From assembly GCF_003334335.1 (NCBI RefSeq), contig NZ_QOWQ01000001.1: DNA of 64,000 bases; one strand, given 5' to 3'. The DNA comes from Escherichia coli (lineage in GTDB: Bacteria > Pseudomonadota > Gammaproteobacteria > Enterobacterales > Enterobacteriaceae). Below are positions 31,654 to 62,676 of the stretch, one piece after another (the first letter of the stretch is position 1; each line of letters begins with the position of its first letter). The position numbers and the translations under genes were made by a program. The notes beneath the pieces were generated by a model. The model saw nothing but the letters and a program-made list of their open reading frames with translations, was not told the origin of the DNA and ran no database searches.

Positions 31654-31881
31654 TTTCATTAATCATTCTGGCATGTCGCACTCTCGCATTTAATCGTTTT
31701 TATCTGGATAGCGCTCTTTTGATCGGCAATGTTGAAATAATGAAAGCGGCATAGATTGAGGGGCAATAATTTGAACTCAGTCGCAAAATTATAATTAAAA
31801 CGGTCATGCTACCTAATATATGCCCGTTTATTGCATCGCGAAATTTGAGAAGACATAACTCATTAAATGAAAGGGATGCAA

Positions 31882-43654: not shown

Positions 43655-46600
43655 TTACACCTCCACGCGGCCCAGCAGATAATGATGATGCTGGTGGACA
43701 TGGCTGATGATGCGGCACATATCGTTCAGCTCCGGTGGTACGTTGTTAAACTGACCTTTGCTGTCGATGTTTAACACCCAGCTTTGGTTATTCAGACGTA
43801 CTCGTACCCGGCAATCTTCCACAAGGAAGCCTGGGTTGCTGCTGTTATCAAAGTCTTGCGCCAGGCTGAAGACGGTGATTTTGTCTTTGTACGGTTTACC
43901 GTTCCACGGACAGAACTGAGCGCAGTTGCCGCATTCGTTACAGTAAGCGTCGAGGTGCAGCGTCTGGAAACGGTTCTGGAAGCCTGGGACCGCAATGGAG
44001 ACGTTGGCGCGGTTCGGGCAGACATCCACACACTTGCTGCAAACGTAGTTACATTCGAGGCAGCGAGCGGCTTCCTGGGCGACAAACGCGTCACGATCGT
44101 CACTGTTCACCAGCGTGATAGAGATATCGCCTTTACGTTGATAGATTTCCGCTGGATTGACGTTGTTCCAGTATTTATCGTTCTGGTGGGAACGGATATT
44201 TTCCCGACTAAGGATGGCATCGGTCGCCCGACGCGCGGTTCCGACAGCAGCGACAATGGAGGATGGTCCGCGCTGTACGTCGCCGATCATAAAGACGTCA
44301 GTCAGACGAGTTTCGCCATTATGGTCGACGTCTGGCCAGCCGTTTTTGTCCAGCGGCACGCCCATCGCATTCAGGGCTTCAGTATCCTGCTGTTCACCAA
44401 TGGCGGTGATCAGGCTGTCTACAAGCAGTGTTACTGTTTCATTGGTTTCAACCGGACGACGACGACCTTTCTCATCCGGTTCGCCAAGCGACATAACGCG
44501 CAAGGTTAAGGTGCCATCAGCATCGAAACGTTCCGGATTATTCAGGAAACGGAACTCTACGCCGTCGTGCAACGCTTCTTCATACTCTTCGCGCCATGCG
44601 GGCATCTCTTGTAGTGAACGACGGTAAACGATCGTTGCTTTTTCTACGCCTGGAACGCGTAACGCCGCACGAGCGCAGTCCATTGCGGTGTTACCCGCCC
44701 CGACAACGACCACATGTTTGCCCAGCTTGAGCGCTGTACCCTTGTTGTATTCACGCAGGAAGGGGAGTGATTTCCAGACATTTTGGTTGTCGCCCGCCAG
44801 TTTCACACCGCTATTTTTATCAGTGCCGGTGGCAATCAGAACATAGTGGAAGCCCTGATTTTTTAACTGCTCAATGGTTAAATCGGGTGAGCAGCCATAC
44901 TCAAATTTCACGCCGTGAGCGGCAACAAAATCGATATCGTGCTGAATTAACTCTGCAGGAATACGGAACTGAGGAATGATATTTTTCACCACGCCGCCCG
45001 CATTGGCTTCGCGTTCAAACAGCGTAACCGGATGGCCCGCTCTGGCAAGGAAGTAACCTGCTGCCAGACCCGCCGGACCTGCACCAATCACGGCAACCGG
45101 ATGGCGTGAACCAGAACCGGCTGGTTTGTGCCAGCGTTGCTTATATTCATCCCAACCTTTTTCCAGCGCGACTTTTTTCAGTTCGCGGATATTCAGCGCA
45201 CTGTCGTAATCCAGGCGGGTACAGTTGTATTGGCACTGGTGATCGCAAATATGACCGGTAATGGCGGGCAGAGCGTTGCGTTGGTAGATGAGTTCCAGCG
45301 CGTCGGCATAGCGGTGTTCGCCAAGCAGACGGATGTATTCCGGAATATCTTGCTTGATAGCGCAGGCAGTAACACAGGGGGCAACGTAGCAGTCGGTCAG
45401 CGGCAGGTCTTCTGCCACTTCAATACGCTCTTCTGGCTTCCAGTGTTTCTGGGTGTATTCCATGGTTAACGCATCTGCTGCCAGTCTGTTCAGTCGTTCG
45501 ACGTCAACATGGTCAAGTCCCCAGGCGTCGGAGCCTTCCAGCTCGCGCATGCAGGCACTTAAGCGCAGATAGCCGCCAGGTTTCAGCAGGTCGGTTGCCA
45601 TAGTAATAGGGCGAATACCTGTATCAAAAATATCGCGGATAGTCAGCTGACTGGCACCACCGGAATAAGAAATGGGCAGTTTGCCGTCAAAGGCGCGAGA
45701 GAGAACTGCTGCAACATTGATGGAGAGCGGGAACAGCGCACGGCCTGACATATACATCTCTTCACCAGGCAGTGCGCCTTTATTGTTGATGGTGCCGAGA
45801 GTGTTAGTCAGTTTTACGCCAAAGCCGAGTGATTTTTCTTTTGCCAGTGCCATCAGGCGTTCCAGCATTTCCAGTGCTTGCGTCAGCTTGAGGTCGTGAT
45901 CAAATGACTCTTCTTTTAAGCCTATGTAACCGAAACCGCAGACATCGAGGATCTCACGAACACGCGCGTACCCCAGTAAGGTCGGGTTAAGTTTCACAAA
46001 GGTGTTGAGCCCTTTTTCTTCCAGCATGTAGCGGCAAATGGCTTCGATTTCATGCGGAGGACAGCCGTGCATGGTGGAGAGGGTGACGCCATGCACCATA
46101 CTGGTGGGGATGCGAGCGGGTAAGGCTTGCAAGCTTTCGCGTTTTTCCTGCAATCCGTGGCGAGCTAAAAATGCGTCATCCTGGAGTAATTTATTCAGCG
46201 TATCGCGATATTGAGCGAATTTCGGATGGTCAGATGCGTCCATCATATTGTCGATGAACTGTTGCATCGGCGGTTGCTTAATACCTTCGAGGTTGTAACC
46301 GACGCTCATATTAAAGATGAACGATTTACCGGAATCAGAAGGCTGGAACATCGCTTCGAGAAGGTGCAGGGCAAACCAGGCTTTGAGGTATTCATCCCAG
46401 GCTTTAAGCAGGGTAAATTCGGTAGACCATTCGGTGTTAAAGCACTCGTCTTCGGCATCGATACAGGGCTTTTCCAGCTCCAGGCGGTCAAGAATTTGGA
46501 CGGTTTTTAGTTCGATGAAGCGTCCGCCAGTCAGCCAGGAAGTGACAATATTTTGCGCGAGCTGCGTGTGCGGGCCAGCGGCAGGGCCGACGGGAGTGGC

Positions 46601-46753
46601 ACAGGTTTCACCGAAGACGCTAACAGTTTTACCTTTTACAGGTGAGTAAAACTGTTGCTCGGGAATACCAAAGATTGAGCGTTGTTGTTGGTATTCATCA
46701 AATATGCGCGTCAAAAGTTCCTCAAACGGAATGGGACGCATAATATCCCCCAT
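43655..46753 (-). CDS. ygfK: Large flavo-iron-sulfur oxidoreductase: barrel domain + GltD-like FeS/FAD/NAD(P)H + 2x[4Fe-4S]. Historically annotated as a putative selenate reductase subunit
   Basis: 1032-aa ORF. Motifs are VKLTNTLG / SYSGGAS (FMN-barrel-like), [67 protein letters not shown] and CNECGNCAQFCP. Confidence 0.92.
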   Translation of the reverse strand: MGDIMRPIPFEELLTRIFDEYQQQRSIFGIPEQQFYSPVKGKTVSVFGETCATPVGPAAGPHTQLAQNIVTSWLTGGRFIELKTVQILDRLELEKPCIDAEDECFNTEWSTEFTLLKAWDEYLKAWFALHLLEAMFQPSDSGKSFIFNMSVGYNLEGIKQPPMQQFIDNMMDASDHPKFAQYRDTLNKLLQDDAFLARHGLQEKRESLQALPARIPTSMVHGVTLSTMHGCPPHEIEAICRYMLEEKGLNTFVKLNPTLLGYARVREILDVCGFGYIGLKEESFDHDLKLTQALEMLERLMALAKEKSLGFGVKLTNTLGTINNKGALPGEEMYMSGRALFPLSINVAAVLSRAFDGKLPISYSGGASQLTIRDIFDTGIRPITMATDLLKPGGYLRLSACMRELEGSDAWGLDHVDVERLNRLAADALTMEYTQKHWKPEERIEVAEDLPLTDCYVAPCVTACAIKQDIPEYIRLLGEHRYADALELIYQRNALPAITGHICDHQCQYNCTRLDYDSALNIRELKKVALEKGWDEYKQRWHKPAGSGSRHPVAVIGAGPAGLAAGYFLARAGHPVTLFEREANAGGVVKNIIPQFRIPAELIQHDIDFVAAHGVKFEYGCSPDLTIEQLKNQGFHYVLIATGTDKNSGVKLAGDNQNVWKSLPFLREYNKGTALKLGKHVVVVGAGNTAMDCARAALRVPGVEKATIVYRRSLQEMPAWREEYEEALHDGVEFRFLNNPERFDADGTLTLRVMSLGEPDEKGRRRPVETNETVTLLVDSLITAIGEQQDTEALNAMGVPLDKNGWPDVDHNGETRLTDVFMIGDVQRGPSSIVAAVGTARRATDAILSRENIRSHQNDKYWNNVNPAEIYQRKGDISITLVNSDDRDAFVAQEAARCLECNYVCSKCVDVCPNRANVSIAVPGFQNRFQTLHLDAYCNECGNCAQFCPWNGKPYKDKITVFSLAQDFDNSSNPGFLVEDCRVRVRLNNQSWVLNIDSKGQFNNVPPELNDMCRIISHVHQHHHYLLGRVEV

Positions 46754-46825
46754 AACCCTCTCCTTAGCTTATACAGATATCATTGAGTGACCGGTGTTGA
46801 GAAATCCGGTGGTTTAGGGGGATAG

Positions 46826-46841
46826 AGCAACAATCGCACCA
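46826..46841 (-). promoter_or_regulatory. Candidate sigma54 (-24/-12) promoter reading into ygfK-ssnA-ygfM-xdhD
   Basis: The minus strand reads GTGGTGC-GATTG-TTGCT. GG-N10-GC spacing is exact and the -12 TTGCT is perfect. The -12 GC is about 75 nt upstream of the ygfK ATG. Confidence 0.45.
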
Positions 46842-46904
46842 CTCTTGCCAGGTTTGGCGGGAAATATAAAAAAATGTGAGGCGGCTCGAAACTTAAGGGC
46901 TTTT

Positions 46905-46920
46905 TGTGAATGAACTCACA
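46905..46920. promoter_or_regulatory. Perfect CRP-consensus palindrome TGTGA-N6-TCACA upstream of ygfK
   Basis: TGTGAATGAACTCACA was read directly. It is centred about 70 bp upstream of the -24 element, with an A-tract (AAATATAAAAAAA, 46862-46874) in between. Confidence 0.5.
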
Positions 46921-47051
46921 GGTGCTAAATGAGAATTAAAATCACTCCTGAAAATTATTATTGCCAGCCCATTTATCAATTTTTCTCTTTTCTCAAAATC
47001 AGTGATTCCTTATCATTATGATAATGAGTGCCGGAAGGATTAAATATTTGA

Positions 47052-47067
47052 ACGCAATCGTTTAACT
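47052..47067. promoter_or_regulatory. PurR-box-like palindrome just downstream of the mocA stop, far upstream of ygfK
   Basis: ACGCAATCGTTTAACT matches ACGCAAACGTTTGCGT at 12/16; the left half matches 7/8. Confidence 0.3.
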
Positions 47068-47074
47068 ACGTTTT

Positions 47075-47653
47075 CTAAATTTCAGTATACCTTTCCTTCG
47101 CTGTAATAAAGTCGTCCGGAGTATCAATATCTAAAATTATTTCTGCATTTTCTATTTCGACGGAATAATGATCTCCCATAAGGAGTGCCTGACGCATATT
47201 GGTGACATTGGGTCGTTGGATTGCCTGCATCAGGCATGGTTTTGACACTAAAATCGGATGGCCGGGGATGCCATTATGGAGTGGCAGTATTGCGCCATCA
47301 TTTCGTAACGACCAGATTTTTCTAAAAATATCGATGGTGAGGGTTGGCATGTCACCGTGGGTGAGAAAACAATGTTCTGTTTGCACTGCGGGTACTGCGG
47401 CCTTGACGGATGTTAGTAAACCCTGCGCATAATCTGGGTTGTGAATAATAGTGATATTGCTCTGGTTCGCATAACGTTCGTGCAGTTCATTACCACGATA
47501 GCCGGTGACTAAAATAATTCGGCTACAAAACTGCAACGCATTTTTGATACTTGTATCAAGAATTGTTCCCTGTTCCCAGGGTAACATCATTTTCCATTGC
47601 CCCATTCTTGATGATAATCCGGCAGCGGTAATTATACAGTCGATGGCTGACAT
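47075..47653 (-). CDS. mocA: Molybdenum cofactor cytidylyltransferase (makes MCD for xanthine-dehydrogenase-family enzymes)
   Basis: 192-aa ORF MSAIDCIITAAGLSSRMGQWKMMLPW... (MobA-like NTP-transferase fold). Visibly lower GC than its neighbours. Confidence 0.92.
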   Translation of the reverse strand: MSAIDCIITAAGLSSRMGQWKMMLPWEQGTILDTSIKNALQFCSRIILVTGYRGNELHERYANQSNITIIHNPDYAQGLLTSVKAAVPAVQTEHCFLTHGDMPTLTIDIFRKIWSLRNDGAILPLHNGIPGHPILVSKPCLMQAIQRPNVTNMRQALLMGDHYSVEIENAEIILDIDTPDDFITAKERYTEI

Positions 47654-52837: not shown

Positions 52838-54049
52838 TTACTCTGTTGCCAGCCAGCTTAACGGGATTGCAGCGTACATCGCGGCACAGGTCACCAGGTG
52901 AGATTTCCAGGTTTTTTCGTTAGGTGCATGCGCTTCAGGTTCTTTACCCGGGCCAAAGCCGATCACCGGAATGCCGTGACGGCCCATGATAGATACGCCG
53001 TTAGTTGAGAAGGTCCACTTATCAACAACCGGCGCTTTGCCAAACAGCCCTTCGTAGGCATTCACCAGTGCTTTAACGGTGAAGTGATCTTCTTCCACTT
53101 TCCAGGTCGGGAAGTAGCATTCGGTTGGGTAAACCAGGCCAGTCCAGGACGGACGGTCGTAGTTGTACATAGAAACAACCGCGTTAGCTTTCTGTACTGC
53201 AGGCAGGGCGCGGATTTCGTCCAGCGCGCCTTCCCAGGTTTCGCCCCAGGTCAGACGACGGTCGATTGAAACTGCGCAGCTGTCTGCTACAGCGCAACGG
53301 CTTGGGGATGTGAAGAAGATTTCAGAAACGGTGAGGGTGCCTTTGCCGAGGAATTCGTCATAACCCAGACGTTGGGAGAGTTCTTGTAATTCGCCAAGAA
53401 TCGGACCCATTTTGAAAATGGCGTTATCACCGCGTTCTGGTGCAGAACCGTGGCAGCTAACACCCTGAACATCAATACGAATTTCCATACGACCGCGCTG
53501 ACCACGGTATACCTGGCAGTCGGTTGGTTCGGTACTGACCACAAATTCCGGGCGAATGCCGGATTGTTCAATAATGTACTGCCAGCACAGACCGTCGCAG
53601 TCTTCTTCCTGCACCGTACCGGTAACCAGCAGGGTATATTCATCTTCCAGACCGAGGTCTTTAATGATTTTACCGGCATAAACCATAGAGGCCATGCCAC
53701 CTTCCTGGTCGGAAGTACCGCGACCACCAATCAGTTCATCAGTTTCCATGCCTTCGTACGGATCGAAGTCCCAGTTTTTGATGTTGCCAATGCCGACGGT
53801 ATCGATATGAGCGTCCATTGCCACCAGACGCGGGCCGTGGCCGATATAACCGAGAACGTTGCCCATCGGGTCGATTTCAACTTTATCGAAGCCGACTTTT
53901 TCCATCTCTTCTTTAATACGATGTACTACGCGTTTCTCGTCGCAGCTTTCACTGGGAATAGCAACCATGTCGCGCAGGAAGCGAGTCATATCCGCCTGGT
54001 AATCTTTTGCTTTTTCAAGAATCAGTTTGAATGGAATATTCTTAGCCAT
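52838..54049 (-). CDS. ygeY: M20-family metallo-peptidase/deacylase (N-carbamoyl- or N-acyl-amino-acid amidohydrolase-like)
   Basis: 403-aa ORF with MDAHIDTVG and [10 protein letters not shown] metal/catalytic motifs. Confidence 0.9.
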
Positions 54050-54106: not shown

Positions 54107-55303
54107 TTAAGGTGCTACAGCGTGTTTGCCTTCCCAGACAACTTCGCGGTAGTGCTTCACGTCGGTGTCGCCTTCAGTGCTGATAACCAGCACCACGGCA
54201 TCTTTGTTCAGCGCCAGTTTTTCCATCAGGCTTTGACGTTGCGGGTGATAATGAACCGCTGCGAGAACGCCCAAACCGACAGCGCCGGATTCACCGGAGA
54301 TGATGCGCGGGTCGTTGCCGTACGGATTACCCAGCACGCGCATACCTAATGCGGCAACGCTGTCCTGGCAGGAGATGAATTGGGTGGCGCAGTTACGTAG
54401 GATTTCCCAGCCCAGCGGGTTAGGTTCGCCACAGGCCAGGCCTGCCATGATGGTGGCCATATCACCGCCAACGTTGACGATGTCGCCTTTGACGCCGGAG
54501 CGATAAATACAGTCAGCTTTGTCAGGTTCAACAATAATGCTGTGCAGATTTTGCGGGCTATAGACGTCGACCAGATAACCCAGCACACCACCGGCCATTG
54601 CTCCGACACCGGCTTGCAGCAGAACGTGCGTCGGGGTTACGCCCATTTCACGCATTTGCTCGACGGCTTCATCTGCCAGGGTTGCGTAGCCTTGCATGAT
54701 CCAGGTTGGGATTTTGGTGTAACCTTCCCATGCCGTGTCCTGTACCACTTCCCAGCCGTGCTGCTGCGCGTGTTGCATGGTCAGGCGAACGGTATCGTCA
54801 TAGTTCATATCCGTGACGATGCACTCGGCACCGAGGTTCAGAATGGCGTCAACGCGTTCCTGAGCAGAACCTTTCGGCATGTAAATCACCGCATTCTGTC
54901 CGAGTTGCTGTGCTGCCCACGCCACACCGCGCCCGTGGTTGCCGTCGGTGGTGGTCGCGAAAGTCATTTTTTCGCCGATGGCATTTTTCAGGTGCTCAAA
55001 TGACAGCGTTTCGATATCAAGATGATATTTTTCACACAATAATTGAGCGATGGCGTACGCACCGCCAAGCATTTTGAAGGCGTTCAGACCGAATCGTTTT
55101 GATTCGTCTTTGACGAGAATTTTCTTCACACCAAAAAGGTTTGCGAGATCGTCCAGCGCACAAAGCGGTGTTGGGCGATAACCAGCTATTTTCTGGTGGA
55201 ACTGGCGCGCCAGTTTGGCCTGGCTTTGCGAAAAGAGCGGTGATGTTTCGCCGTTGAAAAATTTGTTATCGGCGATATCAATCTTCAATGAGAAAACGGA
55301 CAT
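54107..55303 (-). CDS. dpaL: 2,3-diaminopropionate ammonia-lyase (PLP)
   Basis: 398-aa ORF with PLP lysine context FGLNAFKMLGG. Confidence 0.93.
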   Translation of the reverse strand: MSVFSLKIDIADNKFFNGETSPLFSQSQAKLARQFHQKIAGYRPTPLCALDDLANLFGVKKILVKDESKRFGLNAFKMLGGAYAIAQLLCEKYHLDIETLSFEHLKNAIGEKMTFATTTDGNHGRGVAWAAQQLGQNAVIYMPKGSAQERVDAILNLGAECIVTDMNYDDTVRLTMQHAQQHGWEVVQDTAWEGYTKIPTWIMQGYATLADEAVEQMREMGVTPTHVLLQAGVGAMAGGVLGYLVDVYSPQNLHSIIVEPDKADCIYRSGVKGDIVNVGGDMATIMAGLACGEPNPLGWEILRNCATQFISCQDSVAALGMRVLGNPYGNDPRIISGESGAVGLGVLAAVHYHPQRQSLMEKLALNKDAVVLVISTEGDTDVKHYREVVWEGKHAVAP

Positions 55304-56764: not shown

Positions 56765-56859
56765 TTTTTTATCGCGTTATTTATTTGCTGCTAAGTATCA
56801 GAAATAAGATAAAGGGGCAGGCTATCTCTCTTCAGTTTGATAAACTCACCGCCGTAATT

Positions 56860-56871
56860 CTCATATTGATA
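56860..56871 (+). promoter_or_regulatory. Conserved 12-mer box CTCATATTGATA, copy 2 of 3
   Basis: Exact match to 31642-31653 and 62677-62688. It is followed by a TGATAT...TGATATC direct repeat. Confidence 0.4.
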
Positions 56872-57026
56872 TAGAAATGTGATATCTCTTCCATAATTTC
56901 ATTAGAAAATGATAAAAATCTTATGTTTTTATCAAAGCCAATTTCGCCTGAGTTAATATCATCATGATCTGTGAACCATCAACGTCTTCAATGATCGACT
57001 TTTAAGTAAGTCTGGAAGGTAAAGCT

Positions 57027-62578: not shown

Positions 62579-62676
62579 GAAACGACGATAAGCGTTAGGG
62601 GAGGTAGGAAGTGTGATGACGTTAAAAAAACACAGATATGATACGAAACAGGACTCTGAATAGGGGCAGTGATACG

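Follow-up and report, generated by a model that had tools for sequence, protein, structure and literature searches.

The 321-bp spacer between mocA and ygfK, which occupies positions 46754-47074 of a 64,000-nucleotide stretch of Escherichia coli DNA (the window), is likely to be the enhancer-promoter region of the ygfK-ssnA-ygfM-xdhD operon, where sigma-54 RNA polymerase, the activator YgeV, cyclic AMP (cAMP)-CRP and PurR would act together. The products of this operon carry out steps of the anaerobic breakdown of urate and 2,8-dioxopurine. Uric acid induces ygfK, urate degradation is repressed by glucose in wild-type E. coli, and all four genes belong to the YgeV expression module. The window is of the K-12 type: bases 46600-47300 are 100% identical to strain MG1655, and this sequence is found in 5172 of 5426 complete E. 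coli genomes. Published genome positions (g) were related to window positions (w) by g = 3060835 - w, a conversion which was derived from the PurR motif and checked against the centre of the sigma-54 motif.

The promoter element GTGGTGCGATTGTTGCT carries the GG and GC doublets of a sigma-54 promoter 10 bp apart, upstream of ygfK in the orientation of the gene. Read as TGGTGC-GATTG-TTGCT, it differs from TGGCAC-N5-TTGCW at two positions, both at -23/-22, and it retains G-20 and A-19. The original prediction, which had named five motifs on the minus strand of the spacer, placed all of them correctly except for the end of this 17-mer, which reaches 46842 and thus one base further than the 46841 given. 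It had also ranked the element as the best -12 match among four sigma-54 candidates; the TTGCT is indeed perfect, but the first rank is shared with ygfT (TTGCA). The match by sequence alone is not significant, as TGGCAC-N5-TTGCW with up to two mismatches is found 47 times in the window against 44.6 expected, a number not above chance. A matrix built from 38 published sites, from which the four in this window were excluded, gives 11.99 bits, which ties with xdhA, lies below ygeW (15.96) and is similar to several intragenic hits.

The site is nevertheless regarded as real because of published binding data and conservation. Bonocora et al. (2015) reported a sigma-54 peak by chromatin immunoprecipitation with sequencing (ChIP-seq), OS31, which is centred at 3014019 and assigned to ygfK. 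Its motif is the identical 17-mer, centred at 3014001 at a distance of 62 to the ATG, and is marked there as previously predicted in EcoCyc. With a fold-above-threshold score of 26, ygfK has the highest value of the cluster promoters in that work, followed by xdhA (11), ygeW (3) and ygfT (3). In the array study of Zhao et al. (2010), deletion of rpoN lowered ygfK expression 2.4-fold, and induction of sigma-54 raised it 2.1-fold after 5 min.

Conservation was assessed on 80 ygfK loci, one per species, from Enterobacterales, Aeromonas, Vibrionaceae, Colwellia, Ferrimonas and several Betaproteobacteria. Upstream stretches of 500 nt were aligned or scanned; a first alignment (A1) comprised 30 sequences from as many genera of Enterobacterales. 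TGG-N8-TTGCW occurs 60-135 nt upstream of the ygfK ATG in about 74 of the 80 loci, in Gamma- to Betaproteobacteria and from Escherichia to Rhodoferax, and TGG, G-20/A-19 and TTGC are invariant in A1. Zhao et al. (2010) had assigned the promoter to a neighbouring, overlapping motif, TGGCAAGAGTGGTGC (46835-46851), which scores 11.1 bits; we reject it because it is not conserved in other genera. At -26 to -21, the form TGGTG(C/T) is a deviation specific to the Enterobacteriaceae, and other taxa have the canonical TGGC (-24 box TTGGC). Despite having TGGTGC for TGGCAC, the E. coli site exceeds the other three cluster promoters in sigma-54 ChIP signal.

Sigma-54 binding is no proof of a productive promoter, as Bonocora et al. 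(2015) themselves cautioned, and ygfK transcripts could instead arise at a sigma-70 promoter or through read-through of mocA. A terminator scan yielded no convincing terminator after mocA, its terminator-like hits falling only inside coding sequence, and the PurR box just past mocA could be a roadblock to such transcripts. We consider an occupied but unproductive site quite improbable, however. The expression of ygfK is rpoN-dependent, a promoter scan of the spacer gave no sigma-70-like -35/-10 on the ygfK strand, and the -24/-12 conservation across species is hard to explain without function. Against read-through, the regulatory block is kept where the upstream gene is not mocA, for example in Klebsiella michiganensis and Buttiauxella. 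The view that ygfK-ssnA-ygfM-xdhD is a sigma-54 operon, already held in the original prediction together with the correct gene junctions (2 nt, 50 nt and a 4-nt overlap), is therefore supported by the ChIP-seq peak, the rpoN dependence, the YgeV module and the lack of a sigma-70-like promoter. The predicted start, obtained as in the published table by adding 19 nt to the motif centre, corresponds to genome position 3014020 and agrees with the start near 46815 proposed earlier; it adjoins an invariant A.

Activation of such a promoter calls for an enhancer, and the palindrome TTATCAT-T-ATGATAA at 47010-47024 is probably a better candidate than the CRP-type palindrome at 46905-46920. It had been listed before without being recognised as an activator site. 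Its core, TATCA-N3-TGATA, is exact in 65 of the 80 loci, where it is nearly always present as a single copy in 9.2 kb, and is invariant in A1; the calculated chance expectation of an exact copy is about 0.01 per locus. The distance between its centre and the TGG is 176/177 bp in 32 sequences and 155-157 bp in 18 others. These two spacing classes differ by 21 bp, which corresponds to two helical turns, and in the alignment the difference falls between two further conserved blocks of the spacer, box 2 and box 3.

The same word is found throughout the gene cluster. Allowing one mismatch, TATCA-N3-TGATA occurs seven times in the window against 1.21 expected, a number which none of 100 shuffles reached. 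Five of these seven copies are at most 350 bp upstream of one of the four sigma-54 promoters, namely at -202 of ygfK, -199 of ygfT, -234 and -332 of ygeW and -152 of xdhA, relative to the implied starts. The upstream zones make up about 2% of the window, from which a rough and post hoc estimate gives such a placement a chance of about 1e-7. In the form T[A/C]TCA-N3-TGATA, the motif stands upstream of all four promoters, and the 12-mer CTCATATTGATA has exact copies upstream of ygfT, ygeW and xdhA, three in all. When shared 7- and 8-mers were sought in the four upstream regions, the palindrome word family was the only long word common to all.

Boxes 2 and 3, both absent from the original prediction, extend this pattern. 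Box 2 (TTTTGAGAAAT) is nearly invariant in the 30-genus alignment and probably represents a degenerate second activator site. In Photobacterium, the ygfK region has a second full palindrome 19-20 bp downstream of the first, in the place homologous to box 2, and xdhA has two motif copies 21 bp apart (-152, -131). Box 3 is likewise nearly invariant in the 30 genera, is kept too in Serratia, Morganella and Aeromonas, and takes the perfect form TGAGA-N5-TCTCA in Aeromonas lacus. Its half-sites are those of the upstream palindrome. In addition, both boxes share the extended half-site TGAGAAW with the ygeW and ygfT palindromes. In our reading, the enhancer consists of 47010-47024 together with boxes 2 and 3, because the palindrome motif is shared by four promoters, conserved, phased and paired, and the CRP-type palindrome is not shared.

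The protein which binds this enhancer is most probably YgeV: no other sigma-54 activator is encoded in the cluster, the protein combines PAS, sigma-54 AAA+ and Fis-type helix-turn-helix domains, and the operon belongs to its expression module. Another factor, either Fur or an unidentified regulator, could bind TATCA-N3-TGATA instead, with the YgeV site located elsewhere, for example at box 3. The E. coli palindrome does resemble a Fur-type NATWAT repeat, as CATTAT-CATAAT-GATAAG fits 17 of 18 positions of three such hexamers, and the operon encodes iron-sulfur enzymes. Moreover, box 3 is as strongly conserved as the palindrome, and our literature search found no paper on a YgeV binding site or footprint. 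However, only the two 5-bp arms are conserved, and the spacer and flanks vary and are often G or C (e.g. TATCAAAGTGATAG), the sister-promoter copies (TCTCATATTGATA) do not look like Fur sites, and the association of the motif is specific to the four sigma-54 promoters near ygeV, at a helically phased spacing to the promoter. A binder other than YgeV is hence unlikely, although it deserves consideration. The consensuses of Fur, RcsB, ArgR, Fis, ArcA and FNR were also compared by eye with the palindrome (box 1) and boxes 2 and 3, and none fits the conservation pattern.

Homologues and neighbouring genes were inspected as well. In a YgeV homologue search, all of the at least 120 matches listed were from E. 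coli at 99% identity or more. Listing the open reading frames (ORFs) revealed no YgeV-sized ORF adjoining ygfK in four loci (Photobacterium, Aeromonas, Rhodoferax and Klebsiella michiganensis). The ORFs upstream of ygfK in Photobacterium and Aeromonas resemble E. coli yqeB-yqeC-mocA, by size and order only. The divergent ygeV-ygeW spacer holds two enhancer-like palindromes, at 56859-56871 and 56957-56969; therefore, the same factor could also control ygeV. Further enhancer-like copies are intragenic: ygeX/dpaL holds an exact one, TATCAAGATGATA, and ygeY and guaD each hold a copy of CTCATATTGATA with one mismatch. Lastly, AGATATTGATAC at the 3′ end of mocA (47124-47135, about -313) resembles the right half of the enhancer motif, probably by coincidence as it encodes the conserved LDIDTP of MocA.

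The palindrome at 46905-46920 was left undecided by the original prediction between a CRP site and the upstream activating sequence of the sigma-54 activator. Our analysis supports a genuine CRP site. Its perfect core, TGTGA-N6-TCACA, is present once in the window with 0.09 copies expected, close in order to the earlier estimate of about 0.06, and at least one copy arose in 8 of 100 shuffles. Shimada et al. (2011) identified ygfK as a new cAMP-CRP target by genomic SELEX (systematic evolution of ligands by exponential enrichment), an in vitro method, and reported cAMP-CRP targets or peaks also at ygeV<>ygeW and ygfT<>ygfU. In 34 of 71 sequences, a distance of 71.5 or 72.5 bp separates the T of TGG from the centre of the palindrome; all 34 are from Enterobacterales, and they include Serratia, Morganella and Arsenophonus. 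Together with the glucose repression, SELEX and this fixed position favour CRP.

Could the palindrome be merely CRP-like and serve as the YgeV enhancer? Its place, about 70 bp upstream of -24, is in the usual range of sigma-54 enhancers, and its fixed spacing is conserved. However, cAMP-CRP selects the region in vitro. In Aeromonas, Vibrionaceae and Betaproteobacteria, the sigma-54 element and the TATCA palindrome are retained upstream of ygfK but the CRP-type palindrome is missing, and in Raoultella terrigena, Lelliottia and one Kluyvera genome the latter is degraded at its usual position. Two of the three sister promoters are without a good CRP-type palindrome, and the third, ygeW, has TGTGATCAACCCCACA at another position, -77.5. 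Being limited to Enterobacterales and not shared with the sister promoters, 46905-46920 is read as a CRP site rather than an enhancer, and binding by YgeV at this place appears very improbable.

How CRP acts at this position requires closer attention. With the start placed at TGG+26, the centre at -97.5 does not coincide with the class I and class II spacings (-41.5, -61.5, -72, -82.5, -93). Because of this distance from a sigma-54 start, and as the strand has no sigma-70-like promoter, we assign no classical class I or II label. CRP is reported to inhibit the sigma-54 promoters glnAp2 and dctA, and it could act negatively at ygfK too. CRP bound within the loop could equally hinder looping and block the contact between activator and polymerase. 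We regard such a negative role as distinctly unlikely, since glucose represses urate degradation rather than stimulating it, strict positional conservation across many genera fits a required architectural role, and prpBCDE offers a case of positive CRP action at a sigma-54 promoter.

The fourth component is PurR. The PurR-like motif ACGCAATCGTTTAACT, noted before at 47052-47067 and confirmed there, is a published PurR site, which the original prediction had not recognised. Cho et al. (2011) described a region bound by PurR (3013592-3014047; chromatin immunoprecipitation on arrays, ChIP-chip) only with adenine and assigned it to ygfK-ssnA. Their motif AGTTAAACGATTGCGT, at 3013768-3013783, corresponds exactly to this position. 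It agrees with the 16-bp PurR palindrome ACGCAAACGTTTGCGT at 12 of 16 positions and keeps the central CG. In about a dozen genera, among them Serratia, Hafnia and Edwardsiella, a PurR box stands 217-222 bp from the TGG. A PurR-like box, AGCCAAACGTTTTCGT, is also located at -125.5 of ygeW.

Between the CRP site and the promoter, at a position usually taken by IHF, an element of the form TTnGA-N6-TCAC(A/G) is centred at -67.5. Its TT-GA and TCAC are invariant or nearly so in the 30-sequence alignment, and in Serratia, Aeromonas and Photobacterium it persists in the form TTnGA-N6-CTCACGAA. It could be a weak CRP-like half-site, a site for an IHF-like factor or something else. In Dryocola, a near-consensus CRP site occupies this position at ygfK. 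Similar weak CRP-like elements are seen at -67.5 of xdhA (near window position 62619) and -68.5 of ygfT (near 31777). This pattern, noticed post hoc, weakly suggests that the promoters of the regulon commonly have a CRP or CRP-like bend within the loop. The IHF consensus WATCAANNNNTTR with up to one mismatch is not found between -200 and -27; by eye, the CTCAC(A/G)AWWTT element at about -64 has 3-4 mismatches in 9 positions to it. The neighbouring A/T tract is loosely conserved in other genera, as A/T-rich only, and is a possible intrinsic bend.

These elements can be combined into a model of ygfK activation. Sigma-54 RNA polymerase would sit on the -24/-12 element as a closed complex whose opening, we infer, requires YgeV, the sigma-54 activator of the cluster itself. 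YgeV would most likely dock at the -202 palindrome, with boxes 2 (about -180) and 3 (-122) contributing weaker half-sites, and would oligomerise on the phased sites at about -202 and -180, possibly also -122. DNA looping would then bring it to the polymerase. Located inside this loop, cAMP-CRP most likely aids looping by bending the DNA, and further bending may come from the -67.5 element and the T-tract. If CRP aids looping in this manner, the operon would need both a purine or urate signal and the absence of glucose. Beside the enhancer, PurR-hypoxanthine at -244.5 would add an input from the purine pool.

Some observations weigh against this picture, in addition to the points raised above. 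A massively parallel reporter study saw no consistent footprints for the promoters of the YgeV module in its conditions, and ygfK is absent from the main text of a sigma-54 genomic-SELEX study. Our literature search yielded neither mapped start-site data for ygfK nor data on this gene in ygeV or crp mutants, and no record of CRP ChIP in vivo; what the CRP ChIP-exo supplement gives are the ends of transcription units, not CRP peaks. In addition, the glucose effect could act wholly via the ygeV-ygeW region.

Comparison with other sigma-54 systems helps to place the proposed arrangement. Among described systems, prpBCDE of E. coli and Salmonella comes closest; it involves sigma-54, PrpR, IHF and cAMP-CRP. 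Both are catabolic operons with a sigma-54 promoter, a pathway-specific activator encoded nearby and cAMP-CRP control. However, IHF is a stated component of prpBCDE, and ygfK is without an IHF consensus (at most one mismatch) between enhancer and promoter; this space is filled by the CRP site at -97.5 and the CRP-like element at -67.5.

The NtrC-dependent glnAp2 promoter has tandem activator sites on one face of the helix upstream of -24/-12 and is activated by looping. In ygfK, two putative activator sites on the same face likewise precede the -24/-12 promoter. The candidate enhancer is further off, at -202 and about -180 compared with -140 and -108 at glnAp2, and its half-sites are different. 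YgeV carries a PAS domain and not a receiver domain, and CRP is reportedly inhibitory at glnAp2.

Within the cluster, the sister promoters of xdhA, ygeW and ygfT resemble ygfK in having sigma-54 ChIP-seq peaks and belonging to the YgeV expression module, and all four have copies of T[A/C]TCA-N3-TGATA 130-330 bp upstream. A perfect CRP core, box 3 and an enhancer-adjacent PurR box are seen at ygfK alone. The features are collected in Table 1.

Table 1. Sites and genes of the mocA-ygfK region, with related motif copies (window positions; centres relative to the predicted start).
Feature	Position	Strand	Remarks
Sigma-54 -24/-12 element GTGGTGCGATTGTTGCT	46826-46842	minus	GG at -25/-24, GC at -13/-12, G-20, A-19
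Predicted transcription start	46814-46815	minus	motif centre + 19 nt; adjacent invariant A
Ribosome-binding site AAGGAGA	46759-46765	minus	invariant in 30 genera
T7/A-T-rich tract (plus strand AAATATAAAAAAA)	46862-46874	minus	between upstream sites and -24
-67.5 element TTCGAGCCGCCTCACA, TTnGA-N6-TCAC(A/G)	46875-46890	minus	usual IHF position
CRP site TGTGAATGAACTCACA, core TGTGA-N6-TCACA	46905-46920		centre -97.5
Box 3 GAGTGATTTTAATTCTCATT	46928-46947	minus	everted repeat TGATT-N5-TCTCA, centre -122
Box 2 TTTTGAGAAAA	46988-46998	minus	TGAGA half-site 20 bp downstream of right arm of palindrome
Palindrome TTATCATTATGATAA, core TATCA-N3-TGATA	47010-47024		centre -202; candidate enhancer
PurR operator AGTTAAACGATTGCGT	47052-47067	minus	centre -244.5; begins 8 bp after mocA stop codon
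mocA	47075-47653	minus	gene upstream of spacer
ygfK	43655-46753	minus	first gene of operon
ygfK-ssnA-ygfM-xdhD coding block	38627-46753	minus	annotation and junctions
Intragenic enhancer-like copy in ygeX/dpaL	55015-55027		motif match
Intragenic enhancer-like copy in ygeY	53800-53811		motif match
Intragenic enhancer-like copy in guaD	36563-36574		motif match

Two observations concern the 5′ leader of ygfK. A hairpin, ACCGG-N11-CCGGT, spans 46790-46810 on the minus strand, that is +6 to +26 of the predicted transcript, and its arms are conserved across the Enterobacteriaceae with some A-U/G-C swaps. The leader does not fold better than shuffled sequences (z = -0.76) and matches no Rfam family. 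In the clinical isolate E. coli E1739 (NZ_CM180506.1, locus L082), a copy of the insertion sequence IS1 lies between the ribosome-binding site and the ATG of ygfK, at about 46754-46762 of the window. It is flanked by the 9-bp target duplication GGAGAGGGT and places the sigma-54 promoter 768 bp from ygfK.

The sigma-54, CRP and PurR sites of ygfK were already known from genome-wide maps, and the promoter had been predicted in EcoCyc before 2015. Our additions are modest and derive from sequence comparison: the choice between CRP and the activator is made in favour of CRP, a candidate YgeV motif is proposed, and two more conserved boxes and the phasing of the palindrome are described. More tentatively, and with somewhat more doubt than confidence, we propose that T[A/C]TCA-N3-TGA[T/G]A in phased pairs may constitute the enhancer code of the uncharacterised activator YgeV from Enterobacterales to Betaproteobacteria, and that ygfK may represent a class of sigma-54 promoters in which cAMP-CRP, at -97.5 and perhaps weakly at -67.5, takes the bending place of IHF.

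Work is under way to engineer the recently described anaerobic urate-degradation pathway of gut bacteria into probiotics against hyperuricaemia. In this setting, a map of the spacer at base level could be useful, as it provides precise targets for mutagenesis and for the rational de-repression of the pathway. If true, the YgeV code and the CRP-bend class would tie the anaerobic urate and purine catabolism of gut bacteria to catabolite control.

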